Assembly: GCA_021827485.1 (NCBI GenBank)
Contig: JAKAVM010000106.1
Coordinates: 45,277-109,276, forward strand
DNA from: Actinomycetes bacterium
GTDB lineage: Bacteria; Actinomycetota; Acidimicrobiia; Acidimicrobiales; JAKAVM01
Reading direction: 5' to 3'
DNA: 64,000 nucleotides
The translations under genes and the position numbers were made by a program. Shown in pieces: positions 14,670 through 53,532 of the stretch. Positions within the stretch are counted from its first letter, which is position 1. Each line of letters opens with the position of its first letter. The notes under the pieces were generated by a model. It saw only the letters and a program-made list of their open reading frames with translations, was not told where the DNA came from and did not search any database.

Positions 14670-17416
14670 TCTTCATCTCCTATTTTGGTTAGGTTCACAT
14701 AAACAGCCCGGTCGGCCGGAACAGGTTGCCAGCCAAAAGGGATATATCGTAAGTGTCCGTATTTTCCGACCAGATGTAGCCATTTCACCATGCCGGGTTC
14801 TACCTCATTTGAGCCTTTCCACTGTGAAAACATGTGTGGCTCAAATCCGTTATAGACGACAATTTGACCCGGTCGAATCCGTGGTGTGATTCGAACCATT
14901 GCACTAAAGTCACCATGGTCGTTACTGACTCTGACAAACTCGCCATCTTCGATGGAGATAGTGGCTGCATCTAGAGTGTTTAGGATAACCAGTGGTCTCC
15001 CGCGGTGTGTTCCTAATAGAGCGGAATTACCCATGTTGATAGAATGTACTGTCCAGCGAGAGTGACCACTGGTCAAGACATATTGACCATCTCCACCTTG
15101 TCGAGGAGGTTCTTTGTGGCGCGGAAGGTGCTCATCTGCCTCTAGAAACCAAGGATGGTCTATATAAAACTGAGCACGACGCACGAGAGTTGGAAACGGA
15201 AGACCTTTTTCAGTATGCCAAGAGAAAGCAGTCATGACTTTGTCCGGCAATACGTCGGAGGCAACAGATAATCCCGGAGAGAAAACTCCTAAGTCGGTAA
15301 AGCGGATACTTCCCTTGTCTCGAAGCGAGGTTATCGAGCTATCACGAGGAAGGGTACCCGCCATTGCTGAGTCACGTACCCACTCATCGAGGACATCTTC
15401 GTCAGATGCGAAAGCTCCTTGTAATACAAAATCTTTGCCGAGTGTGTCAAGATTGCGGGTAACTCTTCTTGAATCTACGTAGTTGTGCATACCTCGAGAT
15501 AGCGCTTTTTCTGATATATGATTCGCTAGCTCGCTGAAAATTTCCCACTCACTCCTAACGTTTTCAGGGGGAGGGACGGATTTGTCAGAGAAGGAAAGCC
15601 GGAGCATGTGAGTAATCGGATATTGTAGGTTCACTCGTTCATAGGCCATTGCGGCAGGCAGGATTAGATCAGCATGAAGAGCTGTAGTAGACATCCGGAA
15701 GTCAACCACGATTATTTTTTCGAGTTCATCCCATAAGTCGGACAACATTCTATTTCGTCCTCCTCGAGTCCTTCGCAAGGGGTTAGTGCCGACACAGAAT
15801 AGGACTTTTGGAGTGGTTGATGCACTTGGTCTGTTTACTCCTCCCCACCATCCTTTCCGGGTTGCTTCTGTTAGGTAAGACTCGAAATCTTTAGTCATGG
15901 ATTTATCAGACCAATCGGGATTGTTCCATGATTGTTCGTATCCACAGTGGTAGTAGTTAAAAAATATTGGGGGTGCGCTGGTGCCAGAAGCCGCAGCGAG
16001 GTGGATAAGTTGACTTCCTGCTATCTCGTCAGTCATAGATGGATCGGATGAACGAATCTCCTCTACGGCTCGATCAATTCCATCGAGAATTCGGGCAGTT
16101 TCCTCAACCCCTTTGGCTGACTTCATGGAAAATAGCAAGTACCCATCCAGCCCAGCTAAGGCAAGACCTTGAATACCTGTCCCGGGTTTACCCCAATTGC
16201 CAGTTAAGGCGGCAAGTAAGCACATCGAGCGCTCCATTAGGTCGCCGTGGAAATACTTTGGTCCGTTGAAACCTTCGAGGATTTTTGTCGGTTTAGTCGC
16301 AACAAGATGCGCAAGATGCCGAATCATTTGAGGACTAACTCCACAAATAGGGCTAGCCAGTTCGGGGGTATAGCCTTCCAGGCGCTCCTGGAGAAGTGTA
16401 AATACTGTTGTCACTTGCGTACTTATCCCACTGGCAAGTGTAACGGTCCAAGTCCCGACTAATTCAGGCGAAATGTCCCCCAACACAAGGCTATCTCGTC
16501 GAGCTTGGGAGAGCCCGAGTGACTTATCCCAGTGGTAGAACTGGTCATCACTTCCATCGACGGACATATCACTTGATCTAAGAAATCGCCGACTCTCTTT
16601 GACGACTAAGAGAGGTAAGTCTGACTGTGAACAAACAAAATCTTCATCCATCATTTGTTCTTCAATAATTACTTGACACATCGAAAGTGCGAGAGCCGCA
16701 TCACTACCAGGTGTGATTGGAACAAAGTAGTCAGAGTGGATTGCTGAAGCATTATAGTCAGGTGCAATCGCAATTACAGTAGCTCCCCGATATCTATTCT
16801 CGGAAATAAAGTGATGATAAGGGATAGATGTATAAGCAGGATTCGAATGCCATTGTAGAATTAGCTGTGATTTGAAAGTATCATCTACCGTGCTAGCGCA
16901 TGAGAACTTTCCAAAAGTTATGTGTTGGCCCGTCGGCAAATCGTTGACTAATCCATTTGCATCGAGCGTTACCGCACCCAATAGGCCTGCCAATCTCAAG
17001 AAAGACGCTTGGCTCATCAGTCCCCCCTCAACACTCTCTTCAAAGATCACTGAGTCTGAACCTTCTTCAACTATAGCGTCCAAGATCGAATCTGCTATTT
17101 CATCTAAAGCCTCTTGCCACGAGATCTCTTCCCACTGGCCAGACCCGCGTTCTCCTACTCTGCGAAGAGGGTGTAGGATACGATCTGGTGACGTGAGCTG
17201 GCGACTCCAAGCGCTCCCTTTTTGGCAGCCCAGCGGATTGAGGTCAGGTACTTGGCTTTCGATTGATTCAATATGACCACCCTGCTCTTCAAAAAGGACT
17301 TTACCGTCTCTAACATAAACTTTATAGGGACAAGCAGCTAAGCAATTAACACAGTGAGTTCCCCAGGCGGTCTTATCCCATGTCCAACGTGCTCGATAAG
17401 TCTCGGCAGTCCGCAC
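14666..17416 (-). CDS. Type-II DMSO-reductase-family Mo-bisPGD catalytic subunit, paralogue 2 (alpha2), no signal peptide
   Basis: 916 aa. RARWTWDKTAWGTHCVNCLAACPYKVYV plus NPLGCQKG form the FS0 His/Cys motif. NDLPTGQHITFG sits at the NarG Asp-ligand segment. Alignable along its length with alpha1. GTG start inside the last unit of a 16-bp repeat. Confidence 0.85.
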   Translation of the reverse strand: MRTAETYRARWTWDKTAWGTHCVNCLAACPYKVYVRDGKVLFEEQGGHIESIESQVPDLNPLGCQKGSAWSRQLTSPDRILHPLRRVGERGSGQWEEISWQEALDEIADSILDAIVEEGSDSVIFEESVEGGLMSQASFLRLAGLLGAVTLDANGLVNDLPTGQHITFGKFSCASTVDDTFKSQLILQWHSNPAYTSIPYHHFISENRYRGATVIAIAPDYNASAIHSDYFVPITPGSDAALALSMCQVIIEEQMMDEDFVCSQSDLPLLVVKESRRFLRSSDMSVDGSDDQFYHWDKSLGLSQARRDSLVLGDISPELVGTWTVTLASGISTQVTTVFTLLQERLEGYTPELASPICGVSPQMIRHLAHLVATKPTKILEGFNGPKYFHGDLMERSMCLLAALTGNWGKPGTGIQGLALAGLDGYLLFSMKSAKGVEETARILDGIDRAVEEIRSSDPSMTDEIAGSQLIHLAAASGTSAPPIFFNYYHCGYEQSWNNPDWSDKSMTKDFESYLTEATRKGWWGGVNRPSASTTPKVLFCVGTNPLRRTRGGRNRMLSDLWDELEKIIVVDFRMSTTALHADLILPAAMAYERVNLQYPITHMLRLSFSDKSVPPPENVRSEWEIFSELANHISEKALSRGMHNYVDSRRVTRNLDTLGKDFVLQGAFASDEDVLDEWVRDSAMAGTLPRDSSITSLRDKGSIRFTDLGVFSPGLSVASDVLPDKVMTAFSWHTEKGLPFPTLVRRAQFYIDHPWFLEADEHLPRHKEPPRQGGDGQYVLTSGHSRWTVHSINMGNSALLGTHRGRPLVILNTLDAATISIEDGEFVRVSNDHGDFSAMVRITPRIRPGQIVVYNGFEPHMFSQWKGSNEVEPGMVKWLHLVGKYGHLRYIPFGWQPVPADRAVYVNLTKIGDEE

Positions 17417-17485
17417 CTTAGCTTGACACCACCTTAGATTGATACCACCTTAGATTGATACCACCTTAGCTTGACTGCACCTTAG
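17414..17485. repeat. Tandem 16-bp repeat x4.5 (minus strand CTAAGGTG + 8 nt) filling the delta/alpha2 intergenic gap
   Basis: CACCTTAG recurs at 17414, 17430, 17446, 17462 and 17478. The first minus-strand unit carries the TAA stop of the chaperone gene. The last carries the GTG start of alpha2. Confidence 0.95.
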
Positions 17486-18174
17486 TTCGACTGAGGCGAT
17501 GGTGCCAGGATAGTGTCGAGGTAGATAATATCCTTGGCGACAAAGACTTCAAGGTAACGAAGACCCCACGCAATTGCCGGGATCAGAGTCGTGGGGTTTG
17601 AACGTGCGACGAGCCCTGTTACGAGACCTTCAAGGAAGCGAGAAAGAAAATCTGCCTGCGCCCTACGATAAGAAGAGCGAAGGCGGTCAGAGCTTGTGGC
17701 CGCTTCCTTAAAGCACAGAAATCCCATGAACTCAAGCTCAGTGGATAAGTGGTCTGCCCTATGAGCATCTGAGGCGCCTGTAGCCAGACCGAAATACTCA
17801 TACTCACGCTGCACATCATGAATAGTTTGTGCATTATCGCCACTATAAAAACTAGATTCGAGGGGAGATCCATTTTCATCAGATCCCTGGAACGCTAAAG
17901 ACCACTGAGACTCAAATTCTTGGCTATCAAGGCCAGAAAGATCAATCGGAAGGTCGACATCTAATTTATATGGCAGCAGCTCAGATGCACTTTCAAGCTC
18001 TTTGACCCAGATCCCATCGCGACTTTTTGCAAAATGACTAGAGTCAGCGCCACTAAACCATTTTGCAAAAAGTTGATATAACGCACTGCGAGAAGTTGTT
18101 TCATTTTCTTCAACTTCTTGCAGGGTTTCTCCTGCAGCTTTGATTTCTAAACCTGATAGTGAATATGTGAACAT
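17482..18174 (-). CDS. TorD/NarJ/DmsD-family redox-enzyme maturation chaperone (delta)
   Basis: 230 aa, acidic and helical. Sits after the beta subunit as in narGHJ and ebdABCD. SALYQLFAKWF and HLSTELEFMGFL resemble the TorD-family core. The call rests on position plus weak motif resemblance. Confidence 0.7.
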   Translation of the reverse strand: MFTYSLSGLEIKAAGETLQEVEENETTSRSALYQLFAKWFSGADSSHFAKSRDGIWVKELESASELLPYKLDVDLPIDLSGLDSQEFESQWSLAFQGSDENGSPLESSFYSGDNAQTIHDVQREYEYFGLATGASDAHRADHLSTELEFMGFLCFKEAATSSDRLRSSYRRAQADFLSRFLEGLVTGLVARSNPTTLIPAIAWGLRYLEVFVAKDIIYLDTILAPSPQSN

Positions 18175-18191
18175 TAGTTTCTCCTTATCAA

Positions 18192-19334
18192 CTAAGACCG
18201 ATTTGCAGTTCGTCTTGAAGTATCGATGCTTACTGCTACAGTTTCAGGTCTGCGATCGAGTGAAGCTGGGTCAGTTGTGTACGGCCCAAAAAGCTCATTC
18301 CAGTGGTAAACAATTAGAGTATCCAAGATTTCTGAGCTGCCTCCAGAGCGCACAGTATCAAGTTCGCTGCGAAGCTTATCCATAACCGCATGAACCTTCG
18401 GGCCAAAAAGACTTTCCAGATATTCAGGGGGAATTCGAGGAGTCTCATAGTCTATTGACATGTCATCGTTGAGGCGATATGGAGACAAAGGCGGGATATA
18501 AAAGATATTCGGCCCAGTTCCATATTCGGGGTGGAGCGGAAGAGCAATCTCCCATTCATGTACCAACTTGTGGATTGGACCATTCTTATCGTTTGCCATT
18601 CCGACAAAAACAAGTCGACCTGGGCACTGACGGGCGCACGCTGGTGCTACGCCAACTTCGAGCCTTGGGAAGCATAGAATGCAGTGCTGGGCTACATTGC
18701 GAGCGTAATTGAAGTAGATCTTCTTGTAAGGACAGGCCTCCATGCAAAAGCGCGAACCTTGACAGATCTCTTCATCGCGCAAAACAGCTCCATCTTCAGA
18801 TCTTTTGTACATTGCCCCGGATGGACATGCAGTTATGCAAACTGGGTAGGTGCAATGGTTACAAAGTCTCGGGAGATAAAAATAGTACGCGTTAGGATAT
18901 TCACCAGCACCTTGATCTTCGTCCCAGTTCATTCCCCATTTCGTAGTACCGTCGCCCTTGTCTTTAGGTGCTAAATGGACCGATCGACCTTTGCCTCCAT
19001 AGAATACTTCGTCATAATTAAACTCCCATCCGCCACCAAACTCCTCTCTTGTGGGTTGGTGCCCTGGATTTGGCTGGTTCTGATTCCACCCACCCCCCAT
19101 TTGCTCCCAAGCCTTCGGCGTGCCCTGGCCTGGCTGCGTGTTCACCGTCATCCACCACTGATGCTCTTCGCCCTCTTCCCTAGTCCACAGTACCTTGCAA
19201 GCAATGGAGCAGGTTTGGCAACCCATACATTTATTCAAGTCGAAAACCATCGACACCTGATGATCGGTTGCCAAAGATTCTCTGGTAACTTCCGAGTTAG
19301 CAGTTGCGTTATTTCCCTCTAGGCGATCTGTCAT
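18192..19334 (-). CDS. Type-II DMSO-reductase-family iron-sulfur beta subunit (NarH/EbdB-like)
   Basis: VSMVFDLNKCMGCQTCSIACKVLWT, CNHCTYPVCITACP, CQGSRFCMEACPY (NarH CxGWRxC-type group) and CILCFPRLEVGVAPACARQCP. Confidence 0.9.
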   Translation of the reverse strand: MTDRLEGNNATANSEVTRESLATDHQVSMVFDLNKCMGCQTCSIACKVLWTREEGEEHQWWMTVNTQPGQGTPKAWEQMGGGWNQNQPNPGHQPTREEFGGGWEFNYDEVFYGGKGRSVHLAPKDKGDGTTKWGMNWDEDQGAGEYPNAYYFYLPRLCNHCTYPVCITACPSGAMYKRSEDGAVLRDEEICQGSRFCMEACPYKKIYFNYARNVAQHCILCFPRLEVGVAPACARQCPGRLVFVGMANDKNGPIHKLVHEWEIALPLHPEYGTGPNIFYIPPLSPYRLNDDMSIDYETPRIPPEYLESLFGPKVHAVMDKLRSELDTVRSGGSSEILDTLIVYHWNELFGPYTTDPASLDRRPETVAVSIDTSRRTANRS

Positions 19335-19341
19335 TTTCTAT

Positions 19342-20046
19342 TTACAACCTTCCTGTTTGCTCTAAGCCGATCCACTGTGGACTTACTGATCCAATGCCTG
19401 CTCGCTCTTGGTTAGATCCATCCCAAATGGCGATCCCCATTTTCTCGATATTGTTAGCGCCTTCATACTCACCGGAAATTACGACCGTCCAATGATTGTC
19501 ACTCTTGAGAGCCTGGACACTGAGAGAGGCGGTTGTCGCAACGTCCTTATTGGACCTGACTGATTCGTTTAGATTGGGTCTAAAGACACCAGGGCCACTT
19601 GCATAAAGCTCTTTGATAGGTGGCAGATCACGCTGGATAGGAAGTTGATCGCGCCAGTACCATAGACGAACGGGTGCTTGGTGAGTACCTATTGTCAATG
19701 GCGCTGCTCCAGGCTGGTCTCCCTGGCCATTGGCTACAAAGTCAAGGGGGAAAAAAATAGCTGCCGCATCAGTGAACTCACCATCAAAGCCATCCTCTTT
19801 TTCGCTTGCGTTCCCATCAACCTTGTCCCATTCAAGACGAGCAAGTATCTTATTTCCACTGCGTGCAAGTGATAGTTGAGCAGATCGGGTCAATCCATAT
19901 TCGCGATCTGCCCATTTGGTTCTAATGTATGCATTGGGCTGGGAAGTTATCGGTATCGGGACTAGGGCGACTTGCTCTGTATCGATTCCGGACCAATCCA
20001 ATTCCAATAAATTGTTTGTACTTCCTTTTATTTCTGACACATTCAT
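19342..20046 (-). CDS. EB_dh/DOMON-like gamma-type subunit, no signal peptide
   Basis: 234 aa. LARLEWDK...FTDAAAIFFP...VRLWYWR...WTVVISGEY...MGIAIWDGSNQERAG..SPQW follows the ethylbenzene-dehydrogenase gamma (heme-b subunit) pattern. The N-terminus MNVSEIKGSTNN is not a signal peptide. Confidence 0.6.
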   Translation of the reverse strand: MNVSEIKGSTNNLLELDWSGIDTEQVALVPIPITSQPNAYIRTKWADREYGLTRSAQLSLARSGNKILARLEWDKVDGNASEKEDGFDGEFTDAAAIFFPLDFVANGQGDQPGAAPLTIGTHQAPVRLWYWRDQLPIQRDLPPIKELYASGPGVFRPNLNESVRSNKDVATTASLSVQALKSDNHWTVVISGEYEGANNIEKMGIAIWDGSNQERAGIGSVSPQWIGLEQTGRL

Positions 20047-20050
20047 TTTT

Positions 20051-23082: not shown

Positions 23083-23208
23083 GGTTAGCGGTGCCCGATT
23101 AGAGGTGCCCGATTAGCGGTGTACAATTTGAGATGTCAGATTAGAGGTGCCCGATTAGCGATGTACAATCTGAGATGTCAGATTAGAGGTGCCAGATTAG
23201 AGGTGCCA
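23083..23208. repeat. Nine tandem 14-bp units (consensus GATTAGAGGTGCCC; 42-bp super-period) in the divergent intergenic region
   Basis: (G/A)(A/G)TTAG starts at 23083, 23097, 23111, 23139, 23153, 23181 and 23195. Degenerate AAT(T/C)TGAGATGTCA units sit at 23125 and 23167. A stop codon in every unit closes all frames. Confidence 0.95.
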
Positions 23209-23216
23209 GAGAGTAA

Positions 23217-28315: not shown

Positions 28316-28318
28316 ACT

Positions 28319-28354
28319 GGGCGGGACGCGCACCATGGGGGCGGGCGGGCCGGG
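28319..28354 (+). other. G-rich tract with canonical G-quadruplex-forming motif
   Basis: GGG(319-321) C GGG(323-325) ... GGGGG(337-341) C GGG C GGG CC GGG(352-354). Embedded in a GC-rich stretch (about 28316-28410) just after the P2 stop. Confidence 0.6.
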
Positions 28355-28533
28355 TTGCTTGGGCTCGCGCTGGGCGCTGGGGTTCGCGCTGCGGTCGGCA
28401 AGCGCCAGGTGGCCTTTTTGGCCATAAGTTTGCTTATGGGACTAATGGCCCTATTGAGGCCGGGCTGCTTCGATCAGAATGTGGAATGTGACACCTTCCA
28501 CTTCGCACGCACAGCTTGCGGCCAAGGAACAAT

Positions 28534-28588
28534 TTGATACTTCGGGCGGCCAATTGCCGAAAAGTATGATTGATACTTCGGGCGGCCA
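28534..28588. repeat. 19-bp perfect direct repeat TTGATACTTCGGGCGGCCA x2, period 36
   Basis: Copies at 28534-28552 and 28570-28588. They straddle the probable MerR start codon (28566). In the long ORF they encode (F/I)DTSGGQ twice. Confidence 0.95.
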
Positions 28589-29375
28589 GTCGAGCCAAGG
28601 TGATTGTGGAACTCGCCACGACCAAAAGTATCCAGCCGGTTATCTATCCATCTCAGAGCTGATCAACGCCACTGGAGTCACCAAGGCAACAATTCATCAT
28701 TATATTGCTCGTGGCCTTCTCCCTAAGGCGTTCAAGACTGCACATAATATGGCATATTATCCTCCGGAATGTATCGAAATAATCAATGCAATTCGGGAGC
28801 TTAGGGCTAGGCACTTGCCACTAGCGCAAGTCGCGGAAATTCTATCTGAGCATGATCTATCAAAAATATACGCTTTACTTAGACTTGCCGACGAAGAGAG
28901 CTTACTGCTTGCTTCATACGTAAATACCACCACACCGTCAAAGTCAAGGGAGGAGCTCTTGCAGCTGAGTGGACTCGCTCCAGAGGACCTTGACTATTTG
29001 GAGGAATTGGGATTAGCAAGGCGTGAAAATGAAGATTCATACGATGGGCTCACAGTTGAACTGGCCAAATCACTTGCTGCAATGCGGTCTGGAGGTATGA
29101 CCGAGGAAACCGGTTTCCATCCGCGAGATATAGCACTTTACAAGCGGGCAATTGAACAAGTTGTAGAGAGCGAAATCGCATACTTTGAAAGTCGGCTATT
29201 AGGCAAGATTGCGCCAGAAGAGATTCCTAGTGTGATGAGAGCGGCACTTGAACATGCTGAGAGTATCTGTGTGCTGACGCGAAGACGATTACTTCTTGAT
29301 GAAATTGAGAAGGCTGCCAGCAACCGTTCGCATATAAAGAAAACAAACCAAACTAGCCATAGGAGGCAACAATGA
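28566..29375 (+). CDS. MerR-family transcriptional regulator
   Basis: HTH LSISELINATGVTKATIHHYIARGLLP followed by a long helical C-terminal domain. The ORF is open from 28479, so the start is uncertain. Confidence 0.75.
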   Translation: MIDTSGGQSSQGDCGTRHDQKYPAGYLSISELINATGVTKATIHHYIARGLLPKAFKTAHNMAYYPPECIEIINAIRELRARHLPLAQVAEILSEHDLSKIYALLRLADEESLLLASYVNTTTPSKSREELLQLSGLAPEDLDYLEELGLARRENEDSYDGLTVELAKSLAAMRSGGMTEETGFHPRDIALYKRAIEQVVESEIAYFESRLLGKIAPEEIPSVMRAALEHAESICVLTRRRLLLDEIEKAASNRSHIKKTNQTSHRRQQ

Positions 29376-34626: not shown

Positions 34627-35808
34627 ATGGACTTTGATCTAACCGATGAAATCGAGATGCTACGTACTAACGTCTTAGCTGCTGCGACAAATGTCCTGGC
34701 GCCTGGTGCCCGACTAGGGGAATCTCAAGGATGCTGGAGCGATGAAAAGGCAAAAGTGCTTTCTGGATTGGGCCTGTCCACCCTACTTATCCCAGCAACT
34801 CTAGGGGGAGATCAAGACCCTCTTGCATGCTCAGTCGCGTTAGAAAGCCTCGCATCAGGAGATGTAGGAGGATTACTTTATCATGACAAGCCGGGTCCGT
34901 TCTCAGGGGCACTAACAGTTCTGGGAGCAGTTATGCTAAATGACCAAGATTTGCCCCAAACAAAGAGTGCTTTAGCCGAGATTGTATCGAGGTGGGAGTT
35001 GGATTTCCCATTAGGTCTTATCGAAAGTGAATCGGCAATTGCCTTGGCAGTTGTCAGCTATTCTTGTGAGGATCTGAAAAGTATCGATTCAAGTGAGCCA
35101 ATTTCCGGTTCGCTTGCCTGGAGTAGTGGGCGGGTTGAGGATTGGATTTCTTCGACGGAAGATAAGAGTTCACTTTTATTCATTGTTGGTGAGGATTTTG
35201 TATCTCTTCTTCAAGCAAAGGAACTCTCAGTAAGTCCCTGCATTGCTGGAGCCTTTGAAGCTTCCGGTGGAGTGAGTTTATATTGGCAGGATCTTAGCAA
35301 ATCAATAGTTGTGGATGCTTCGCGGCAAGCAGCTATTTATGTTCGATCAGTTGCTCGGCTGTGGGTTGCTTCGGTGCTAATCGGAATCGGGCAAGCATCA
35401 CTTGATTACGCGATTGACTATGGTCGGCAAAGAGTAGTGTTTGGATCAGCAGTGGTCGATCATCAGGCAAATGCATTCGACTTGGCAGAGGCATCGGTGA
35501 AACTAGAGGCCGCTCGACTTGGCCTGAGATTGGGATGTAGGAACCTGGAAATGAAATTGGATTTCGCTGGAGAGATGAGTGCTTGCTGGCTCTTAACTCA
35601 AGCCTATTGTGAAGCTCGTGAAGCTTCTTTACGTGCCACGGATTTGAGTTTACAACTGCTTGGTGGGCATGGTTACATGAAAGATCATCCAGTTGAGAAA
35701 TGGTGGAGAGAAGCTCGCTTGCTTGTTCGACTTTTTGGAGGCGAAGACGCTGCTCTATCAGATCTCTCGACGATGGTTCTCCGATACAAAGATCCTCTGG
35801 TGCTCTGA
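34627..35808 (+). CDS. Acyl-CoA dehydrogenase-like protein lacking the catalytic Glu (probable non-catalytic partner subunit)
   Basis: Starts at MDFDLTDEIEMLR, a typical ACAD N-terminus. ACAD-like C-terminal helices. The YEGT catalytic-base position reads LFGGED. Confidence 0.7.
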   Translation: MDFDLTDEIEMLRTNVLAAATNVLAPGARLGESQGCWSDEKAKVLSGLGLSTLLIPATLGGDQDPLACSVALESLASGDVGGLLYHDKPGPFSGALTVLGAVMLNDQDLPQTKSALAEIVSRWELDFPLGLIESESAIALAVVSYSCEDLKSIDSSEPISGSLAWSSGRVEDWISSTEDKSSLLFIVGEDFVSLLQAKELSVSPCIAGAFEASGGVSLYWQDLSKSIVVDASRQAAIYVRSVARLWVASVLIGIGQASLDYAIDYGRQRVVFGSAVVDHQANAFDLAEASVKLEAARLGLRLGCRNLEMKLDFAGEMSACWLLTQAYCEAREASLRATDLSLQLLGGHGYMKDHPVEKWWREARLLVRLFGGEDAALSDLSTMVLRYKDPLVL

Positions 35809-35835
35809 TGGTTCTCCGATACAAAGATCCTCTGG
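35772..35835. repeat. 29-bp perfect direct repeat (period 35) spanning the junction of the two ACAD genes
   Basis: GATGGTTCTCCGATACAAAGATCCTCTGG at 35772-35800 and 35807-35835. Copy 1 encodes the C-terminus (MVLRYKDPL) of the first gene, and its TGA stop (35806-35808) runs into copy 2. Confidence 0.95.
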
Positions 35836-35842
35836 CGTTGTG

Positions 35843-37051
35843 ATGGAGCTATTCTTGGATGATCATACTAAGAAGGCAATAGAGTTGATTCGTTCACTTG
35901 GCAAAGAATATTTGCGCCCTCTTGGGATTGAAGCCGACACCTTGGCAAGAGCAATCCCGCCCGACCATCCATTCTTTCAACTAATTGCCAGCTCTGGTTA
36001 CATGTCAAGAGGGCTTGGCAGCGCTCAAGACACGGCAACCAAGTCTAAGTCAGGTGATACGAAGAATTCTCGACCCGGCACGTGGGTATGTAATGTTCTC
36101 ATTGCCGAAGAAGGATCGTATTGGGATAGAGGAGCGCTAGTGTCTCTGCCAGGTCCAGGGTTAGGCGGGCCACCAGTTCTACAGATGGGTACGCTAGAGC
36201 AACAATCGAGATTTCTTTCGGTTTTTCGACAAAGGGAACGTCCGGTATGGGCCGCATTTGCAATGACTGAACCAGAAGCGGGAAGTGACGTAGCCCGAAT
36301 TCGTACAAACGCACGTAGGGACGGAGACGAGTGGATTTTGAACGGACAGAAGATGTATTCCTCGAATTCACCGAGAGCAGAATGGGTCGTAGTCTTTGCG
36401 ACAATTGATATTGAATTGGGGAGGGCTGGACACCGAGCTTTTGTGGTCGAGCGTGGAACTAAAGGATTTGAGATACTTCGAATAGAGCACAAGATGGGAA
36501 TACGTGCATACGAGACTGCAAGTTTTGCTTTAGACAATTGCCGAATCCCTTATGAAAACTTGCTAGGAGGAGAGAATTATTATAGCGAGAAAGGCAAGAA
36601 GGGTTTCGAAGGTGCGATGAGCACTTTTAATGCCACAAGGCCAATAGTAGCAGCTATGGGCATTGGTATTGCTAGAGCTGCTTACGACATTGCGCTGAAG
36701 TTCGTCGAGGAGGATTATCCAAAGCACGCAGCCGGAAGGCTAAGAAAGGCTCTGGAGCAGTTGGCAGCTATGCAGAGAAAGATAATGCTTTCTCGATTAC
36801 TTTGCCTAAAGGCAGCATCACTGCTCGATCAGGGTAAGCCCAATGCCTTAGCTGCTTCTTCTGCCAAGCAGTATGCACCGCCAATGTGTCTTGAGGTTGT
36901 AGAGCACGCAACCGATATTTTGGGAGAAGCTGGAATTGCCAAGGATGGACTTTTGGAAAAGCTAGCACGGGATGTCAAGGCCATTGATATTGTTGAGGGC
37001 ACCCAGCAAATTCAGCGCCGAGTAATCTCAAAAAATATCATTTCACGTTAG
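35843..37051 (+). CDS. Acyl-CoA dehydrogenase (catalytic subunit)
   Basis: Starts at MELFLDDHTKKAIELIR. WAAFAMTEPEAGSDV, and IDIVEGTQQIQRRVI carrying the catalytic Glu. The ORF is open from 35693, but that part overlaps the upstream gene. Confidence 0.85.
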   Translation: MELFLDDHTKKAIELIRSLGKEYLRPLGIEADTLARAIPPDHPFFQLIASSGYMSRGLGSAQDTATKSKSGDTKNSRPGTWVCNVLIAEEGSYWDRGALVSLPGPGLGGPPVLQMGTLEQQSRFLSVFRQRERPVWAAFAMTEPEAGSDVARIRTNARRDGDEWILNGQKMYSSNSPRAEWVVVFATIDIELGRAGHRAFVVERGTKGFEILRIEHKMGIRAYETASFALDNCRIPYENLLGGENYYSEKGKKGFEGAMSTFNATRPIVAAMGIGIARAAYDIALKFVEEDYPKHAAGRLRKALEQLAAMQRKIMLSRLLCLKAASLLDQGKPNALAASSAKQYAPPMCLEVVEHATDILGEAGIAKDGLLEKLARDVKAIDIVEGTQQIQRRVISKNIISR

Positions 37052-37954: not shown

Positions 37955-38086
37955 GGCGTTGGTCCAGGGGCAGTCCACGGGGCGCTACACGCGGCAGTCC
38001 AATGGGCAGTCCACGGGGGTAGTCCACGGGGCGCTACACGCGGCAGTCCAATGGGCAGTCCACGGTGTTCCAGGGGCGTTCCACGC
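37955..38086. repeat. GC-rich tandem repeat, 49-bp unit x2 (one mismatch) with degenerate flanking partial copies; core (C/T)AGTCCA x6
   Basis: 37967-38015 and 38016-38064 differ at one base. AGTCCA at 37972, 37996, 38008, 38021, 38045 and 38057. Lies between the divergent crotonase and ctaG genes. Confidence 0.95.
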
Positions 38087-39384: not shown

Positions 39385-39399
39385 TCAAATCAAGCATAG

Positions 39400-43327: not shown

Positions 43328-44671
43328 GTGACAAGTCTACTTGATAGTCGAATTAGGCCAGTTGCAGTTAGGGATCACTTCGAGGCTGAAGTTGAAGAAG
43401 TAAGTCCGTTTACACTTTGTATTCCCGAGGAGGTCGATGGACTTCGTGGCAAGATTATGGACTCGATTGTCCAGTCTGGAGCTGACTCATCGTCAATTAT
43501 CGACCTGACCATCGAACTCCAAGAGTTCCTATGGAAGGGGTGGGAGCCAACTTTGACTTACTGGGGGATTGGATGGGGGAGTTTTCTTGATATTGTTAGT
43601 GGATATAGAAGAGAACTGTGGCTTTGGTGCATGCGTGAGCGCACTTGGCAACAGTGCATCAGTGGACTTGCAGGAAGGTTAGCTCGGAGAACTTTAGATG
43701 AGGCAACTAAGGAGCATCCGTTGATGGCGTCTGTAAACCAAGATCGCTTTGCTAATCGCGAAGCTAGTACGAACAACAAGTTATCTCATTTGGACGAACT
43801 TGAGTCACATGCCATATTTGTTATGAGAGAAGTGGCTGCGGAATGTGAAAGACCGGCGCTACTATTTTCAGGGGGGAAGGACTCAGCAGTTCTTCTTCGC
43901 ATAGCCGAGAAAGCTTTTAGGCCCGCAAGGTTTCCGTTCCCAATTCTTCATGTCGACACCGGGCATAACTTTCCTGAAGTTATCGAGTATCGTGATCGCC
44001 AGGTTGAACGGCTCGGCGAGAAACTGATAGTCGCCCAAGTTCAGAGGACAATTGATTTAGGCCGGGTGACTGATCCGGGACCTGGGGCAAGCAGGAATCG
44101 TCTGCAAAGTGTAACTTTACTTGATGCTATTTCTGAATACGAGATAGATGCAGCTATAGGCGGAGCCCGACGTGATGAAGACAAGGCCCGTGCTAAAGAG
44201 CGAATTCTATCGTTCAGAGATGCTCTTGGCCAGTGGGATCCACGCAATCAACGTCCAGAACTGTGGCATCTTTACCAGGGGCGAGTTCGTCAGGGTGAGC
44301 ATTTGAGGGCTTTCCCACTCTCGGATTGGACTGAATTGGACGTATGGCAATACATAGCTCGGGAAAAGATAGAATTACCTCCGATCTATTTCGCACACTC
44401 AAGGAAGGTCATCGAGCGATCGGGAATGCTACTTGCTCTAAGTGAGTGGGTTCAGCCAATGGGACAAGAGGAGATAATCGAGGAAGTTGTTAGATTTAGG
44501 ACCGTTGGTGATGCAACTTGCACCGGGGCAGTTAGGTCTAGAGCAAGTACTATTGAGGAGGTCATAGCCGAAGTAGCTTCGTCGAGAGTAACAGAGCGGG
44601 GAGCCACACGAGCCGATGATAAGTTTTCTGAGAGTTCAATGGAAGACCGAAAGCGCGAAGGCTATTTCTAA
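43328..44671 (+). CDS. cysD: Sulfate adenylyltransferase subunit 2 (CysD) fused in frame to a 132-aa N-terminal domain of unknown function
   Basis: The CysD core runs from about residue 133 (LSHLDELESHAIFVMREV..LLFSGGKDS PP-loop .. GYF C-terminus). GTG at 43328 directly follows the upstream TAA and has AGGAAGGAAG upstream. An internal ATG at 43724 has its own AAGGAG. Confidence 0.85.
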   Translation: MTSLLDSRIRPVAVRDHFEAEVEEVSPFTLCIPEEVDGLRGKIMDSIVQSGADSSSIIDLTIELQEFLWKGWEPTLTYWGIGWGSFLDIVSGYRRELWLWCMRERTWQQCISGLAGRLARRTLDEATKEHPLMASVNQDRFANREASTNNKLSHLDELESHAIFVMREVAAECERPALLFSGGKDSAVLLRIAEKAFRPARFPFPILHVDTGHNFPEVIEYRDRQVERLGEKLIVAQVQRTIDLGRVTDPGPGASRNRLQSVTLLDAISEYEIDAAIGGARRDEDKARAKERILSFRDALGQWDPRNQRPELWHLYQGRVRQGEHLRAFPLSDWTELDVWQYIAREKIELPPIYFAHSRKVIERSGMLLALSEWVQPMGQEEIIEEVVRFRTVGDATCTGAVRSRASTIEEVIAEVASSRVTERGATRADDKFSESSMEDRKREGYF

Positions 44672-44743
44672 ACAGTGCAAGAATCTCGACAACAGATTAT
44701 TTCTATTTCTAAACAGTGCAAGAATCTCGACAACAGATTATTT
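44662..44743. repeat. Perfect 41-bp tandem duplication that includes the last codons and stop of cysD
   Basis: CTATTTCTAAACAGTGCAAGAATCTCGACAACAGATTATTT at 44662-44702 and 44703-44743. The cysD TAA is at 44669-44671. Confidence 0.95.
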
Positions 44744-44765
44744 CTGTCAAGTGAAATTATAAGCC

Positions 44766-47341: not shown

Positions 47342-48499
47342 GTGAATCGAATAAACTCCTTCGAAGGGGATCGTTATATCCTCGGTGAATTGCATGAGCA
47401 ATCTCCTCAACACTACTCAGCATGGTACGCTATTTGGGATAACAGTGATCCGAACCCAGAGTCTACTCCCATAGCCACTTTCCCATTCGGGCCAGAAGGA
47501 TGGGCTCAGGCTTGGCAGTACTTTATTGAATTTGAACCCTCTCCTAGGCCAGTGCCACGCCCACAGTTTGATCCTACGCAGGGTCCAAAGTTTGACCCTA
47601 CGGGTGTCCGAACATCCGAACCGACCACAAGTATTCCGCCGGGATATGCACCTCCCCAAGGGTTCAATCAACCATCGACCTGGGGAGCCACTTCCGCAGG
47701 ACCAGGCGCAGGTCCACCGAGAGGTCCCTATCAACCAACCTGGGGAACTTCGTTCCCCAATGGGCCAAATAGCAATGGCGCTTCAGGGGTAGAAGTCGCA
47801 TTTGAAGGTCCTACCAAGCAACGCAGACTTACCGTTGCTTTTAGAATCATCCTAGCTGTTCCACAACTGTTCGTCCTGTGGGCATTGACAGTTGCTCTGT
47901 TCGTTCTTGGGGTTATTTCCTGGTTTGCAGCACTATTTACAGGTGCGGTTCCCGATGGGCTAGCTGAGTTTATGAGGTCAGTAGTCATCTATAATGGCCG
48001 TGTCTCTGGTTACTTGGCTTTACTAACTGATCGGTATCCACCTTTTACCTTGGCGTTAGTTCCTTATCCGATATATATAGAGATTTATTCATCTCGGCTA
48101 AACAGGCTCGCCGTATTTTTTAGAATTATTCTTGTAATTCCGGCCTACTTACTCATCTCCTTGATGGGGGTTGGCCTAGAAATTCTTTTCATTATTACAT
48201 GGGTGATAGTTTTGGTGGCTGGCCAGATGCCAGATGTGATCTATCGGGCCATAGCAAGTATTACGCGTTATCAGATGCGACTCGGCGCATACTTTTTCAT
48301 GCTGACATCGACATATCCCTTTGGGCTCTTTGGCGACAGCGATATTGCCCCGGACCAATATCGACGCCCACTGATTCTTCCAACAGGCTCAATAGTTATT
48401 ATTTCAATATGTATTGCTATAGGAGTATTGCAGTTTATTTTGTCTCACTTTCAGCACGGTGGCATAGTTACGCCCGGGCCACATCCAGTTTGGCTTTAG
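47342..48499 (+). CDS. DUF4389-type membrane protein (two repeats) with soluble N-domain and Pro-rich linker
   Basis: RLTVAFRIILAVPQLFVLW...FAALFTGAVPDGLAEF...LLTDRYPPF, repeated as RLAVFFRIILVIPAYLL...LVAGQMPDVIYRAI...MLTSTYPF. Confidence 0.7.
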   Translation: MNRINSFEGDRYILGELHEQSPQHYSAWYAIWDNSDPNPESTPIATFPFGPEGWAQAWQYFIEFEPSPRPVPRPQFDPTQGPKFDPTGVRTSEPTTSIPPGYAPPQGFNQPSTWGATSAGPGAGPPRGPYQPTWGTSFPNGPNSNGASGVEVAFEGPTKQRRLTVAFRIILAVPQLFVLWALTVALFVLGVISWFAALFTGAVPDGLAEFMRSVVIYNGRVSGYLALLTDRYPPFTLALVPYPIYIEIYSSRLNRLAVFFRIILVIPAYLLISLMGVGLEILFIITWVIVLVAGQMPDVIYRAIASITRYQMRLGAYFFMLTSTYPFGLFGDSDIAPDQYRRPLILPTGSIVIISICIAIGVLQFILSHFQHGGIVTPGPHPVWL

Positions 48500-48527
48500 C
48501 GTCCGGGGACTCTACGGCCCACCGGGG

Positions 48528-49262: not shown

Positions 49263-50099
49263 TTACGGTTTCGAGGAATCTCTTACATTGCCTAGGTACG
49301 CGCTACGTAGCTCCTCGCCCTCAATCACGCTCTGCGTTTCACCTTGGGCAATAAGTTTTCCAAGGTCTAGAACGTATAGTCTATTTGTTAGTTCAACAAC
49401 TACGTCGAGGTCATGCTCAACGATCACAATCGCCATATTAGTGGCTGATTGTAAAGTGACAAGAGTATCAATCAATGAGTCAGTTTCTATTGAGTCCAAT
49501 CCGGATGACGGTTCATCCAGTAAGAGAAGTTTAGGATCTCGGATTAAAGCCCGCCCGAGTTCCACAAGTCGTCCCTTGCCTAGAGAAAGAGTGTCGACAG
49601 GAGCGCTGGCCACGTCAGCTAATTCCAGTAACTCTACCAGCGTTTGAGCTTGAGCGATCTCCGATCGGGTCGGAGCACCTAAATTAAGCAAGTCTTTCCA
49701 TAACCGTCCTGACCCTCGCTTTGCTCTGGCCGCTACAATGAGGTGCTCTCGAACTGTCATTGAGCTAAAAAGCTCAAGTCGTTGAAATGTGCGCCCAATT
49801 CCCCTTGAGGCCCTTCGGAAGACAGGAAGGTTTGTTATATCGCTACCTTCAAAAAGTATCCTTCCCGTATCTGGCGCTAAGGTTCCGCAAATGCAGTTGA
49901 ATAGAGTTGTTTTACCTGCCCCATTGGGTCCAATCAACCCAACTGATTCGCCTGAGTATATTTCAAGTGAGACGTTAGTAACTGCTTGAATCCCACCAAA
50001 GCTTCGTGATAGGTCTCGGATTTCGAGTAGTGGCTGAGTGCTCGCACCCAAGTCTGTGGCGTGAGTATCGTTGGAGGCTGGAATCGGCTGAGTGCTCAC
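49263..50099 (-). CDS. livG: Branched-chain amino acid ABC transporter ATP-binding protein (LivG-like)
   Basis: GPNGAGKTTLFN, LSLGKGRLVELGRAL, LLLDEPSSGL. The N-terminal 18 codons are one copy of a 54-bp duplication. Confidence 0.9.
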   Translation of the reverse strand: MSTQPIPASNDTHATDLGASTQPLLEIRDLSRSFGGIQAVTNVSLEIYSGESVGLIGPNGAGKTTLFNCICGTLAPDTGRILFEGSDITNLPVFRRASRGIGRTFQRLELFSSMTVREHLIVAARAKRGSGRLWKDLLNLGAPTRSEIAQAQTLVELLELADVASAPVDTLSLGKGRLVELGRALIRDPKLLLLDEPSSGLDSIETDSLIDTLVTLQSATNMAIVIVEHDLDVVVELTNRLYVLDLGKLIAQGETQSVIEGEELRSAYLGNVRDSSKP

Positions 50100-50139
50100 G
50101 GTTAGCTCGTTGGCGCAGGTATCGTTGGAGGCTGGTGAC
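50032..50139. repeat. Diverged 54-bp tandem duplication spanning the livHM stop / livG start junction
   Basis: GGCTGAGTGCTC at 50032 and 50086. GTATCGTTGGAGGCTGG at 50065 and 50119. The middle of the unit has diverged. Confidence 0.9.
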
Positions 50140-52087
50140 GATGATTCTTACGCTGCCTAGAAGCCTCAATTCGTCCCTCAATCTTGACTACAGACTTCTT
50201 ACGGAAATACTCGATCACCCCTTCGGGATGCGATAGAAAGCTCAAGGCAGCCAGGCCAAATATCACTGGTTCGAATGAATTGAACCAACTAGGCATGAAG
50301 CTCAAATTGAGAAATTGGGCAAGCAAAACATATGCAAATCCAGCCTGAATTGCACCCCCAACAGTACGCGATCCAACAATCATTACCACGACTAGAAAGA
50401 TGAGTGAAAACAAATATACAAAATCGTTAGTCGAAACCGTACTTTGGAAAGAACCATATAAACCCCCACCAATCCCAGCAAAAAAACACGAGATACCAAA
50501 TACGAGTACCTTGTACTTGGAAACATTTATTCCGATGGACTCAGCTGCTAATTCACTTCCCCTTATAGCAGTAATATACATTCCAATTGTGCCTTTGCGA
50601 ATTAGATAAATTGCACCGGCGCACAGTAGCAAGATTATCAAGACCAGCGCAAAAAATGGCCGTGCTGTTGAAAAATTAATATTACCAATTTGGGGACGCG
50701 GAATATTGACTCCGGTAGCACCGTTTCCTGCCCACGGATAAGGGAAAAGTACATTATCGCAAAGCAATGCAAACCCGAGTGTGGCAAGTGCGAGGCTAAT
50801 TCCACCTAGGCGCAATGTAGGTAGTGCAACCAAGACACCAACTAAGCCAGCCAAGATACCACCTAATAAGGTACCAACCAATACCGGAAGTCCGAGACTT
50901 CCCGAAGCAAGGTGCCCGGCCGTAAAGGCACCAATTCCTGCAAACGTCATTTGGGCCAGAGAGATCTGCCCGCTCATACCGGTTAAGAGCGTAATCGAGA
51001 GGAATATAATTGCAAAAATCATCGCCTGGCTGAAGTTATCCACCCAGTTGCTAGGGATCCAAGTCAATGATGAGCCGACTAGAAAAGCAAGTATTGCTAG
51101 CCACCAACTCTTTACGATTGACGCAGTTGCCACGCTAACATGGGGCGATGCCGTTGATGGCGTTGGGGGGTCGCAGCCACTCAAAGGGTCAGAAGTTCGA
51201 GAGAGTTTGCGTAAGGATGGAAGGGTGATAAGCAAAATAACCAATACCAGGAATGGAAACCCAGGGCGCAGTCCTTGAGCCAAAATGGTGCTGGCAGGAA
51301 GATAGCCACCTAGAATCTCTTGGCCAACTCCTAGAAAAATACCTCCAAAGAGGGCTAGTGGTAGCGAGAGAAAACCTCCGAAAGCAGCTGCTGCAATAGC
51401 GGAAACTAATAGTGTCGTAAAGTTTAGAGAACTAAGTTGGGCAAAAAGTGGGGCAAGAAGAACACCGGCCAGTCCCGCAATAAAGCTCGATAGAGCCCAC
51501 GCAAAAAGCGAAAAAGATGACGACCGTACGCCGTAAAGCTCTGAAAGTCTTGGGCTTTCCACGACCGCCCGAATACTCAATCCAATGGAAGAAAATCGAA
51601 GCAAGACCCATAGCGCTCCGACAGTTGCAAAAGTAACTATAACAGTTGAGAGTTCCAGGCCATTTAGCGGATATCGTCCTATCGAAAAGTAAACCTTATT
51701 TGGGTTTAGAAATAAGCTTGGTGGAGCTATCCGATTGGAAGTTCCGGCAATGGCATCGGCAATCTGTGGGATTGCAATGAGCATTCCCAGCGATGCGGTA
51801 AGTTTCACTACTGCAGGGGCTGTACGAATATGGCGGAATATTACTAAGTCCAATATCACTCCAACCAGAGGCCCCACGACTGCTACAGCAATGATGAACG
51901 ACCAGAAACTTCCCCAGCCATTTTTCATGCAAACGTAGAAGACAAGAGCAGAAATATAGGCCTGGGCTCCAAAAGCAAAGTTGAATACTCCAGAGGCTTT
52001 GTAAGTAAGTACTAGGCCAACGGCCAACAGAGAAAAAACGCAGCCCCAAGGAATCCCAGGCAGTGCGTAGTTCAGGAAATTATTCAC
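50102..52087 (-). CDS. Fused LivH-LivM-type branched-chain amino acid ABC permease
   Basis: 661 aa and very hydrophobic throughout, with two permease-length halves. Sits between the substrate-binding protein and the ATPases. Confidence 0.85.
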   Translation of the reverse strand: MNNFLNYALPGIPWGCVFSLLAVGLVLTYKASGVFNFAFGAQAYISALVFYVCMKNGWGSFWSFIIAVAVVGPLVGVILDLVIFRHIRTAPAVVKLTASLGMLIAIPQIADAIAGTSNRIAPPSLFLNPNKVYFSIGRYPLNGLELSTVIVTFATVGALWVLLRFSSIGLSIRAVVESPRLSELYGVRSSSFSLFAWALSSFIAGLAGVLLAPLFAQLSSLNFTTLLVSAIAAAAFGGFLSLPLALFGGIFLGVGQEILGGYLPASTILAQGLRPGFPFLVLVILLITLPSLRKLSRTSDPLSGCDPPTPSTASPHVSVATASIVKSWWLAILAFLVGSSLTWIPSNWVDNFSQAMIFAIIFLSITLLTGMSGQISLAQMTFAGIGAFTAGHLASGSLGLPVLVGTLLGGILAGLVGVLVALPTLRLGGISLALATLGFALLCDNVLFPYPWAGNGATGVNIPRPQIGNINFSTARPFFALVLIILLLCAGAIYLIRKGTIGMYITAIRGSELAAESIGINVSKYKVLVFGISCFFAGIGGGLYGSFQSTVSTNDFVYLFSLIFLVVVMIVGSRTVGGAIQAGFAYVLLAQFLNLSFMPSWFNSFEPVIFGLAALSFLSHPEGVIEYFRKKSVVKIEGRIEASRQRKNHRHQPPTIPAPTS

Positions 52088-52098
52088 GTCTAGGGCTG

Positions 52099-53439: not shown

Positions 53440-53490
53440 GATTTCCTTCCCTAGTTGAGTACTCGTAATTGTTAACTTATCGCTTTGCGC

Positions 53491-53532
53491 AGCTAGTATT
53501 GAGCAATCGATAGTTAGTATTGAACAATCGAT
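53491..53532. repeat. 21-bp tandem duplication (2 mismatches) in the divergent liv/argS intergenic region
   Basis: AGCTAGTATTGAGCAATCGAT followed by AGTTAGTATTGAACAATCGAT. Confidence 0.95.

Follow-up and report, generated by a model that had tools for sequence, protein, structure and literature searches.

Tandem arrays in an uncultured Acidimicrobiales population are dense, strain-variable VNTRs that survive where reading frames stay unbroken

The short tandem arrays in a 64,000-nucleotide stretch (the window) of chromosomal DNA (47% GC; 6.2% intergenic), which belongs to an uncultured Acidimicrobiales population, are ordinary VNTRs, unusually dense for a bacterium, variable among strains, and surviving only where reading frames are left unbroken. 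They consist of head-to-tail units of about 10-100 bp, differ by whole units, and change at a rate well above that of point substitution. We consider it probable that they are locus-specific VNTRs produced by lineage-specific slippage or duplication and filtered by purifying selection. An earlier, sequence-only reading of this DNA had offered genome-specific slippage or duplication, with selection purging intragenic events, as one of its explanations, and this agrees with the unit variation, the arrayless sister species, the pattern of periods and placements, and a pN/pS of 0.12.

Tandem arrays were called with Tandem Repeats Finder (TRF), and the 54-mer was aligned in register by hand. The 13 arrays of the window are listed below.

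7983..8019, forward strand: 18-bp in-frame array, 2.1 copies, encoding part of the N-terminal tail of an amino-acid permease (TRF)
11581..11634, reverse strand: 54-bp segment, single copy in the window, inside an AMP-binding enzyme gene
17413..17493, reverse strand: 16-bp unit, 5 copies, filling the junction between a NarJ-like chaperone gene and the gene for a second molybdopterin-oxidoreductase subunit (TRF, frame analysis)
23085..23210, forward strand: 14-bp unit, 9 copies (higher-order unit of 42 bp, 2.6 copies), in a divergent intergenic region (TRF)
28345..28382, no strand assigned: 19-nt polymorphic tandem duplication in a GC-rich tract, downstream of an amine-oxidase gene
28533..28604, forward strand: imperfect 36-bp-period pair, core TTGATACTTCGGGCGGCCA identical at 19/21 positions, at or upstream of a MerR-family gene start
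35772..35846, forward strand: 35-bp unit, 2.1 copies, where two acyl-CoA dehydrogenase genes meet (TRF, frame analysis)
37962..38065, no strand assigned: 12/24/49-bp repeats, GC-rich, with the core GTCCAnGGGGCA, lying within the 514 nt that separate the divergent enoyl-CoA hydratase and CtaG genes (TRF)
44662..44745, forward strand: 41-bp unit, 2.0 copies, 100% identical, comprising the last CysD codons, the TAA stop and spacer, upstream of CysN (TRF)
47569..47602, forward strand: 24-bp unit inside a DUF4389 gene, N-terminal to the domain
50033..50140, reverse strand: 54-bp unit, 2 diverged copies (~70%), spanning a permease stop (50102-50104) and an ATPase GTG at 50099
53494..53533, no strand assigned: 21-bp pair, 1.9 copies, in the divergent LivK/ArgRS intergenic region (TRF)
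56823..56854, forward strand: weak 15-bp in-frame array, 2.1 copies, inside an enoyl-CoA hydratase gene (TRF)

Six of the eight head-to-tail duplications named in the sequence-only reading were recovered by TRF as listed, and the remaining two differ in form. The duplication of the 54-bp pair is visible in register, with copies so diverged (~70% identity) that they fall below TRF detection. The supposed 19-bp pair at 28534 is not composed of head-to-tail 19-mers; it comprises two ~21-nt copies 36 nt apart, at 28533 and 28569, with the remainder of the unit diverged. We read this pair, which is invariant in 13 assemblies, as an old duplication of 36-bp period. Arrays at 7983 (18 bp), 56823 (15 bp), 11581 (54 bp), 28364 (19 bp) and 47569 (24 bp) had been absent from the earlier list.

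A comparison with chance revealed a clear excess of arrays in the window, concentrated outside coding sequence. Eight arrays (score at least 50, period at least 9) were found against 0.23 in Markov-3 simulations, and five reached a score of at least 100 against 0.86 expected per 64 kb (P~0.002), an expectation derived from 1.35 Mb of unrelated bacterial loci. Strong arrays are thereby ~6 times as dense as in those loci, and arrays overall occur about once per 6-8 kb in a region that is 94% coding. Four further strong arrays lie in the 14.7 kb flanking the window; window and flanks together cover ~79 kb of the host genome, from which any genome-wide statement is an extrapolation.

Strains were compared across 5-13 independent assemblies per locus, ~99.4% identical and covering ~62 kb of the window. 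Copy-number variation, which the earlier reading had suggested seeking in population data, appeared as whole-unit differences at 8 of the 13 window arrays, against segregating sites of 0.6% overall (pS 0.018); these calls rest on short-read metagenome assemblies, which may collapse repeats, a risk counterbalanced by alleles common to several assemblies and by most arrays being shorter than the read length. One flanking array outside the window also varies by exact units (n = 1). In the ~62 kb that other assemblies overlap, 11 indels were seen; 8 of them add or remove repeat units, and none measures 1-2 nt. With ~0.96 events per array versus 0.006 segregating sites per nt, arrays change ~50-160 times as fast as single sites are substituted; with so small a sample, this figure is approximate. 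A search of JGI metagenomes for extra alleles, using the NarJ-like protein, returned no match.

It is highly improbable that assembly errors produced the arrays or the differences in copy number. Short-read contigs do break at the 49-bp and 35-bp arrays (L092 and L093 end at 38001, L099 and L100 at 37905, L101 at 35801), and Ns lie within one variant allele. However, NCBI, ENA and Logan assemblies of different samples, made with different assemblers, agree base for base in the arrays, variant alleles recur in 2-10 assemblies, and most arrays are shorter than 130 nt.

This species has a higher array density than the nearest sister species available for comparison. No array scoring at least 50 was detected in 42.5 kb of syntenic sister-species DNA, and the orthologous junctions lack repeats both there and in more distant relatives. 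MutS and MutL are not known from Actinomycetota, and their absence would not account for the difference from the sister species.

The placement of the arrays is consistent with reading-frame constraint. The claim that none lies deep inside a coding core holds for the eight arrays originally listed and fails for the window as a whole, which contains in-frame intragenic arrays. Although intergenic DNA makes up only 6.2% of the window, eight of the 13 arrays have 45% or more of their length in non-coding sequence (P~2e-7). Periods not divisible by 3 occur only in intergenic or junction arrays, and most in-frame periods lie inside genes (within CDS, 0/7 arrays of the former kind versus 6/10 with a multiple-of-3 period; Fisher P 0.02-0.03). 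Where 94% of the DNA is coding, a duplication whose length is not divisible by 3 would persist only between reading frames. The counts are reproduced if ~12% of in-frame coding duplications are tolerated, assuming that all intergenic ones survive; targeting to junctions is therefore not needed, and the placement would reflect purifying selection instead. Such an in-frame versus intergenic filter is standard VNTR behaviour.

In-frame duplications may persist in tolerant parts of proteins. The AMP-binding enzyme segment at 11581 is duplicated in tandem and in frame in L088 and L089 (50/54 identical), and the 24-bp unit at 47569 has one extra in-frame copy in four other assemblies. No allele switches a reading frame off: coding arrays are in frame, and junction alleles leave the flanking ORFs intact. 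Purifying selection is strong (pN/pS 0.12), and relaxed selection as a cause was ruled out by this value together with an intergenic diversity lower than the synonymous diversity. For the enoyl-CoA hydratase, a look-up with the longest-ORF start matched only two short contigs, as gene callers place the start later.

Units are unrelated in sequence between loci and hold the flanking genes' own terminal codons. Each array may thus have originated by local tandem duplication of resident sequence, and probably grows and shrinks by replication slippage or unequal recombination between copies. Microhomology at the repeat borders, put forward earlier as something to look for, proved minimal where readable, amounting to 2 nt (CT) at the 41-mer; this is little for slippage-initiated duplication and does not explain the first duplication step. 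A 7-nt TATTTCT considered as border microhomology of the 41-mer was rejected, its copies being 35 rather than 41 nt apart and the periodic overhang 2 nt.

Frame analysis confirmed the earlier observation that four arrays contain a stop and/or the start of the next gene. At the 16-mer, which lies between the NarJ-like gene stop (17482-17484) and the GTG of the second molybdopterin-oxidoreductase subunit (17416), the unit reads TAA-G-GTG plus 3 codons, generating four chained 4-codon mini-ORFs (VQSS, VVSI, VVSI and VVSS, each followed by a stop). L088, L089 and L091 carry 4 units (a 16-nt loss), and in the relatives L103 and L107 a simple spacer of 16-33 nt takes its place. At the 35-mer, the second copy forms an 11-codon mini-ORF (MVLRYKDPLAL and a stop) whose ATG shares bases with the upstream TGA and whose TGA does so with the ATG downstream, giving TGATG at either end; three copies in L096 produce two mini-ORFs, and the sister species has a 59-nt spacer without repeat. 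The 21-mer junction array of L111, in the window flank, shows the same relay layout, with a mini-ORF stop beside the next start.

The 14-mer array presents a related arrangement between a Mo-oxidoreductase operon (start 22948, minus strand) and a gene for a 208-aa hypothetical protein (ATG 23223): it holds a 35-codon upstream ORF (23119-23226) whose TGA overlaps the ATG of the hypothetical gene (ATGA). L088 has 42 nt fewer, one higher-order unit, with the frame preserved.

The 41-mer lies upstream of the CysN GTG (44766), is single-copy in L006, and is replaced in the sister species by a 50-nt spacer without repeat. The distal copy of the 54-mer adds 18 aa in frame to the N-terminus of the LivG-like ATPase; L001 and L004 carry four copies (+108 nt), giving an ATPase of 314 versus 278 aa, and the sister-species ATPase has 262 aa and no repeat.

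Coupling-compatible layouts are thus preserved at junctions. The relay layout was kept in every allele examined of the 16-mer, the 35-mer, the L111 21-mer and the 14-mer upstream ORF, and was looked for in the 41-mer and 36-mer, where it is not present. Since any one array has a 1/3 chance of satisfying the relay condition, three or four cases yield only P~0.04-0.1. Duplication across a stop/start boundary would copy the whole stop-(SD)-start module, and the junction arrays that survive would be those whose unit length sets each new mini-ORF stop beside the next start. A terminating ribosome could then reinitiate stepwise along the mini-ORFs, keeping the translational coupling of the operon.

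Such layouts also raise the question of adaptive tuning, the other explanation offered by the earlier reading. Copy number would then fix the relative amounts of operon products by the number of termination-reinitiation steps and the strength of promoters by their spacing, and the arrays would be kept as "tuning knobs". Stop and start do stay adjacent in every junction-array allele, the promoter array shifts by 42 nt (four helical turns) with the upstream-ORF frame kept, and several alleles exist side by side in the population. We nevertheless judge this improbable: neither the sister species nor more distant relatives share any of the arrays, so that none is an old, maintained device. Moreover, in-frame arrays are found within unrelated genes, and others sit at gene ends where they have no coupling role (41-mer, 36-mer), a distribution that a non-selective mutational source fits better than tuning.

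The 19-nt tract at 28345..28382 has one extra unit in ten other assemblies, and the 12/24/49-bp array shows no copy-number difference among assemblies, with several short-read contigs ending in or beside it. The 21-mer pair, invariant in 6 assemblies, lies directly upstream of a -35/-10-like site (53536-53563), the only informative signal when the three divergent regions were scanned for promoters and terminators. Its core TAGTATTGAACA occurs once in the sister species, where the duplication is absent; the MerR 36-bp pair is likewise absent there, and the MerR protein has 261 aa. The 12/24/49-bp and 21-bp promoter arrays, being without variation, could be regulatory sites rather than neutral VNTRs.

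A broader version of this idea, in which all four short-unit promoter arrays (the 14-mer at 23085, 12-mer at 37962, 21-mer at 53494 and 36-bp pair at 28533) are direct-repeat transcription-factor sites, seems unlikely to us. All four are in divergent or 5' regions, three of them are invariant among strains, and the 21-mer core is conserved once in the sister species and is closely followed by a -35-like hexamer. Yet the duplicated state is missing from the sister species at the two arrays that could be compared in synteny, the 21-mer and the MerR pair, the 14-mer array differs by 42 nt between strains, and no adjacent regulator is tied to any motif.

The suggestion that these arrays represent an undescribed systematic feature was not upheld. 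MIRUs of Mycobacterium (Supply et al. 1997), as outlined in PMC12548453, are intergenic VNTRs with small ORFs coupled to flanking genes, and this description already covers the layout. The arrays studied here resemble MIRUs in being tandem units within intercistronic operon regions of an actinobacterium, in having small ORFs that touch or overlap the stop and start codons on either side (in the 16-mer, 35-mer and L111 21-mer, but not in the 41-mer, the 36-mer or the promoter arrays) so that coupling can persist, and in varying in copy number between strains. MIRUs, however, form a single dispersed family, regarded as mobile, with related units 40-100 bp long, whereas each array here has its own unrelated unit (14-54 bp) drawn from local gene ends. 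The relay-layout junction units, at 16, 21 and 35 bp, fall outside the MIRU range, and the same process here also yields in-frame intragenic and divergent-promoter arrays.

We accordingly give almost no credence to a dispersed, possibly mobile repeat family inserting at gene junctions as MIRUs do, despite the shared layout of small ORFs coupled to flanking genes. All-versus-all comparison of units on both strands against shuffles found similarity only between the two copies of the 54-mer array, and the composition of the units from the terminal codons of their neighbours contradicts such a family within the 79 kb covered. A resemblance of the 16-mer to part of the 42-mer (P=0.025 uncorrected, 91 comparisons) was attributed to chance. 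Dispersed elements of the REP/BIME/MITE type, which have a shared, usually palindromic consensus, were rejected because no consensus is common to the loci, and the cyanobacterial HIP1 motif GCGATCGC had no match. Rfam at gathering thresholds detected only a tRNA-Arg in the window; the arrays are therefore not known RNA elements.

Locus-specific VNTRs remain the preferred explanation. Bacterial VNTRs or minisatellites, as used in MLVA typing (e.g., the ETR loci of M. tuberculosis), are locus-specific repeats of ~10-100 bp that gain or lose whole units by slippage or recombination, are enriched in intergenic or in-frame positions, and are polymorphic among close strains. Nothing fundamental separates the present arrays from these; their density and their absence from the sister species stand out. 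Contingency loci, the phase-variable SSRs of pathogens, likewise shift copy number rapidly in or near genes and promoters, but they have 1-9-nt units and switch frames or promoters ON and OFF, whereas units here are 14-54 nt and no frame is switched off.

More speculatively, and with considerable doubt on our part, this lineage, with a raised local duplication rate that its sister lacks and with ribosome-relaying mini-ORF chains as the only surviving intercistronic duplications, may exemplify an ongoing de novo origin of MIRU-like repeats from ordinary junctions. If so, MIRU-type layouts could arise without mobility, and unit number would determine how strongly neighbouring operon genes are translated relative to one another. 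The mini-ORF chains, built from local sequence, offer a clean natural example of stop/start junctions tolerating duplication and a testable model for the origin of MIRU-like coupled repeats, and the sister-species contrast makes the cause of the raised duplication rate tractable by comparative genomics. The loci also provide ready, high-resolution MLVA-type strain markers for an uncultured, widely sampled Acidimicrobiales population. For annotation, gene starts and lengths at the junctions are strain-variable, as in the two ATPase lengths (278 vs 314 aa) and in MerR and DUF4389, whose calls are inflated.

Analysis with TRF, simulations and control loci confirmed the dense short tandem duplications that the sequence-only reading had observed in the window. 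Eight arrays were observed against 0.23 expected in Markov-3 simulations, a frequency far above prediction from composition alone. Measured against 1.35 Mb of unrelated bacterial loci, strong arrays (score ≥100) were about six times as frequent (5 in the window versus 0.86 per 64 kb in the controls; P~0.002); among the controls, a locus of a Thalassotalea genome was about as array-rich as the window. The excess over other bacterial loci is real, not extreme.

TRF recovered six of the eight arrays first listed, at their reported positions. TRF missed the 54-bp pair at 50033-50140 because its copies have diverged too far, yet the pair shows plainly once set in register and is expanded in other strains. 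What had been read as a 19-bp pair at 28534 is not a 19-bp unit: it consists of a ~21-nt core that occurs twice at a distance of 36 nt, the remainder having diverged. Also present, and overlooked before, are in-frame arrays inside genes at 7983 and 56823 and extra tandem copies in other strains at 11581, 28364 and 47569. As an out-of-sample test, 14.7 kb beside the window, reached via the same-species contigs L111 and L114, yielded four additional strong arrays, and the genome sample comprised ~79 kb of this species and 42.5 kb of its sister species.

Strong arrays in the flanking DNA
48-bp array: in frame inside a TPR gene; two strains one unit shorter
43-bp array: divergent intergenic region
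21-bp and 36-bp arrays: co-directional junctions

The window is bacterial chromosome of 47% GC, packed with metabolic genes. Its intergenic share is only 6.2%, and 1- or 4-nt overlaps are frequent between co-oriented genes.

Gene content of the window (Pfam)
Two-enzyme molybdopterin-oxidoreductase operon and NarJ-like chaperone
Amine oxidases, MerR regulator, two acyl-CoA dehydrogenases, enoyl-CoA hydratase
CtaG, sulfite reductase, CysD/CysN
Branched-chain amino-acid ABC transporter, ArgRS, cytochrome c maturation genes

The operon at 9527-22948 (minus strand) encodes two molybdopterin oxidoreductase catalytic subunits, an ethylbenzene-dehydrogenase-like gamma subunit, an Fe-S subunit and the NarJ-like chaperone, together with two unknown proteins, CopD, an AMP-binding enzyme and a radical SAM/SPASM protein with a C-terminal SEC-C motif. 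Its gene order is kept in L103 and L107, distant relatives of 65-70% GC.

By exact-protein look-ups the window belongs to a population of metagenome-assembled genomes: DAHYFY010000058.1 (GCA_027390335.1) is 99.98% identical to the window, and at least 12 further assemblies (NCBI, ENA, Logan) match it at 98.7-99.7% identity. The name 'Acidimicrobiales bacterium' is borne by many homologues and by a cluster member of >90% identity. All same-species loci were aligned to the window and every gap was listed (~62 kb covered, mean depth 7), which revealed 371 segregating sites (0.6%) and 11 indels, as well as one exchange of an RHH-PIN toxin-antitoxin cassette. In eight of the 11, an array had gained or lost exactly one repeat unit or two; none of the 11 was only 1-2 nt long.

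Repeat-unit indels among strains
17454: 16-nt unit, loss
23159: 42-nt unit, loss
28363: 19-nt unit, gain
35771: 35-nt unit, gain
44705: 41-nt unit, loss
47568: 24-nt unit, gain
50035: 54-nt unit, two units gained (108 nt)
11634: 54-nt unit, gain

The copy-number variation that the sequence-only reading had proposed looking for in population data is therefore present, as whole-unit differences at 8 of 13 arrays, with variant alleles common to two to ten independent assemblies. Given that only 0.6% of sites overall and 1.8% of synonymous sites differ, this polymorphism implies that an array changes roughly 50-160 times as fast as a single site, on copy numbers taken from short-read assemblies. 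Five same-species short-read contigs (L092, L093, L099, L100 and L101) end in or beside the 49-bp or 35-bp arrays (37905-38001; 35801); these repeats break up metagenome assemblies of this species.

Array placement followed period length. Those with periods not divisible by three (16, 14, 19, 35, 49, 41 and 43 bp) lay outside coding sequence or straddled a gene end in 7/7 cases, while six of the ten arrays with multiple-of-3 periods were in frame inside genes (Fisher P 0.02-0.03 versus other periods). Under a model of uniform hits in which all intergenic events survive, the observed 8:5 split needs just ~12% tolerance of in-frame coding duplications, and purifying selection is strong (pN/pS 0.12). 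A selection filter therefore explains the bias towards junctions and promoters, and targeting is unneeded. The same pN/pS, with intergenic diversity below synonymous diversity, rules out a general relaxation of selection as the source of the excess. Unit-wise copy changes, the period-modulo-3 filter and the pN/pS value all support the earlier proposal of slippage plus selection, in which duplications would strike by slippage and selection would filter which survive. At the only perfect duplication the borders share just 2 nt of microhomology, which does not account for the first duplication step.

The junction arrays are built from the flanking gene ends. On the gene strand, the 16-mer unit (17413) reads TAA-G-GTG plus three codons, so that the array forms four chained 4-codon mini-ORFs, each stop one base before the next GTG and the final GTG being the Mo subunit start; four-unit strains have three mini-ORFs. 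The 35-mer (35772) repeats the 3' end of the first dehydrogenase gene, 11 codons counted from an internal ATG, its extra copy forming the ORF MVLRYKDPLAL* with a TGATG overlap at either end, and a three-copy strain carries two such ORFs. In L111, a 21-bp x3 array lies entirely within a 28-codon ORF that starts directly after the upstream TAATAG and ends by an ATGA overlap with the chemoreceptor start. The 14-mer promoter array (23085) holds an upstream ORF of 35 codons whose stop overlaps the ATG of the following gene (ATGA), and varies by 42 nt among strains, which keeps the frame. The 54-mer (50033) covers TAA-CC-GTG and lengthens the N-terminus of the ATPase by in-frame repeats of 18 aa, and the 41-mer (44662) and the 36-mer of the flanking DNA duplicate the upstream stop and spacer. 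Taking as a relay any array whose unit length modulo 3 equals the stop-to-start offset (prior one in three per array), such layouts are suggestive at most (P~0.04-0.1), and preserved coupling may have been selected for.

The MerR-family gene beside the 36-bp pair was called from 28479 or 28488 (295-298 aa; sister orthologue 261 aa, HTH from residue 57). ATG 28566, which lies within the pair's second copy, is probably the real start codon.

The closest relative found, the sister species GCA_027452005.1 (CysN 77% and ACAD 71% identical, GC ~53%), had no array scoring ≥50 in two syntenic stretches totalling 42.5 kb, where ~6.5 would be expected (12 in 78.7 kb, scaled by hand arithmetic; Poisson P of zero ~0.0015). 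Its CysD-CysN spacer (50 nt) and the 59-nt spacer of its acyl-CoA dehydrogenase gene pair are unrepeated, its 262-aa ATPase directly follows the permease stop at an unrepeated junction, and a single TAGTATTGAACA lies upstream of ArgRS. In distant relatives (65-70% GC), the NarJ-to-Mo-subunit junction is a plain 16-33-nt spacer. These unrepeated junctions indicate that the arrays are recent and species-specific, not conserved devices. The invariant promoter arrays (12/24/49-bp, 21-bp and 36-bp) may be regulatory direct repeats: the 21-mer core adjoins a -35-like site and has one conserved copy in the sister species, although the duplicated state is not conserved there where comparable (21-mer, 36-bp pair). 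To our knowledge, MutS/MutL are generally missing from Actinomycetota, and as a cause of the raised rate their absence would not separate this species from its sister.

GC content runs from 47% in this species through ~53% in the closest relative (L106/L122) to 65-70% in more distant relatives (L103/L107; Fe-S subunits 82% identical). GC has thus fallen markedly in this lineage, even though purifying selection is strong.

Intergenic enrichment and in-frame periods within genes are standard behaviour of generic VNTRs. The arrays do not match contingency loci, since the units are too long and frame switching is absent. The junction layout matches that of MIRUs as described in PMC12548453 (citing Supply et al. 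1997), namely repeats that lie between the genes of an operon and have an internal ORF coupled at -4 spacing to the gene downstream. In contrast to MIRUs, however, several units here are <40 bp, units are unrelated between loci, and they derive from the flanking genes' own ends; by the last two differences they fall outside that family. The arrays are better classed as generic locus-specific VNTRs. Rather than the undescribed systematic feature first claimed, they are of a known kind, VNTRs with a MIRU-like junction layout, and provide a well-documented fresh case in an uncultured Acidimicrobiales species.

Several further segments also vary among strains. Beside tRNA-Arg(CCG), the genes of an RHH antitoxin (39163-39384) and a PIN toxin (39400-39816) make up a cassette (39096-39993) that some strains carry and that same-species contigs L095 and L097 lack or have replaced, which marks it as a toxin-antitoxin insertion at a tRNA gene that varies among strains. 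The 70% GC island at 58475-59224, within a 47% GC genome, was probably horizontally acquired; its 132-aa ORF shows an HTH and a weak match to a HicB-like antitoxin, both below Pfam cut-offs, and the adjoining 172 nt (58480-58651) are deleted in L001. Immediately 3' of the amine-oxidase stop codon, an 80% GC tract (28291-28440), missing from the sister species, contains the 19-nt duplication that is polymorphic; the 73-77-aa ORF that gene callers put there is dubious. At 48500-48527, the 28-nt convergent gap between the DUF4389 and ABC ATPase genes, four other strains have gained 42 nt of GC-rich, non-tandem sequence (ATGGTCTACAGGGAGGCCCACCGG...), which has GGCCCACCGG in common with its left flank.
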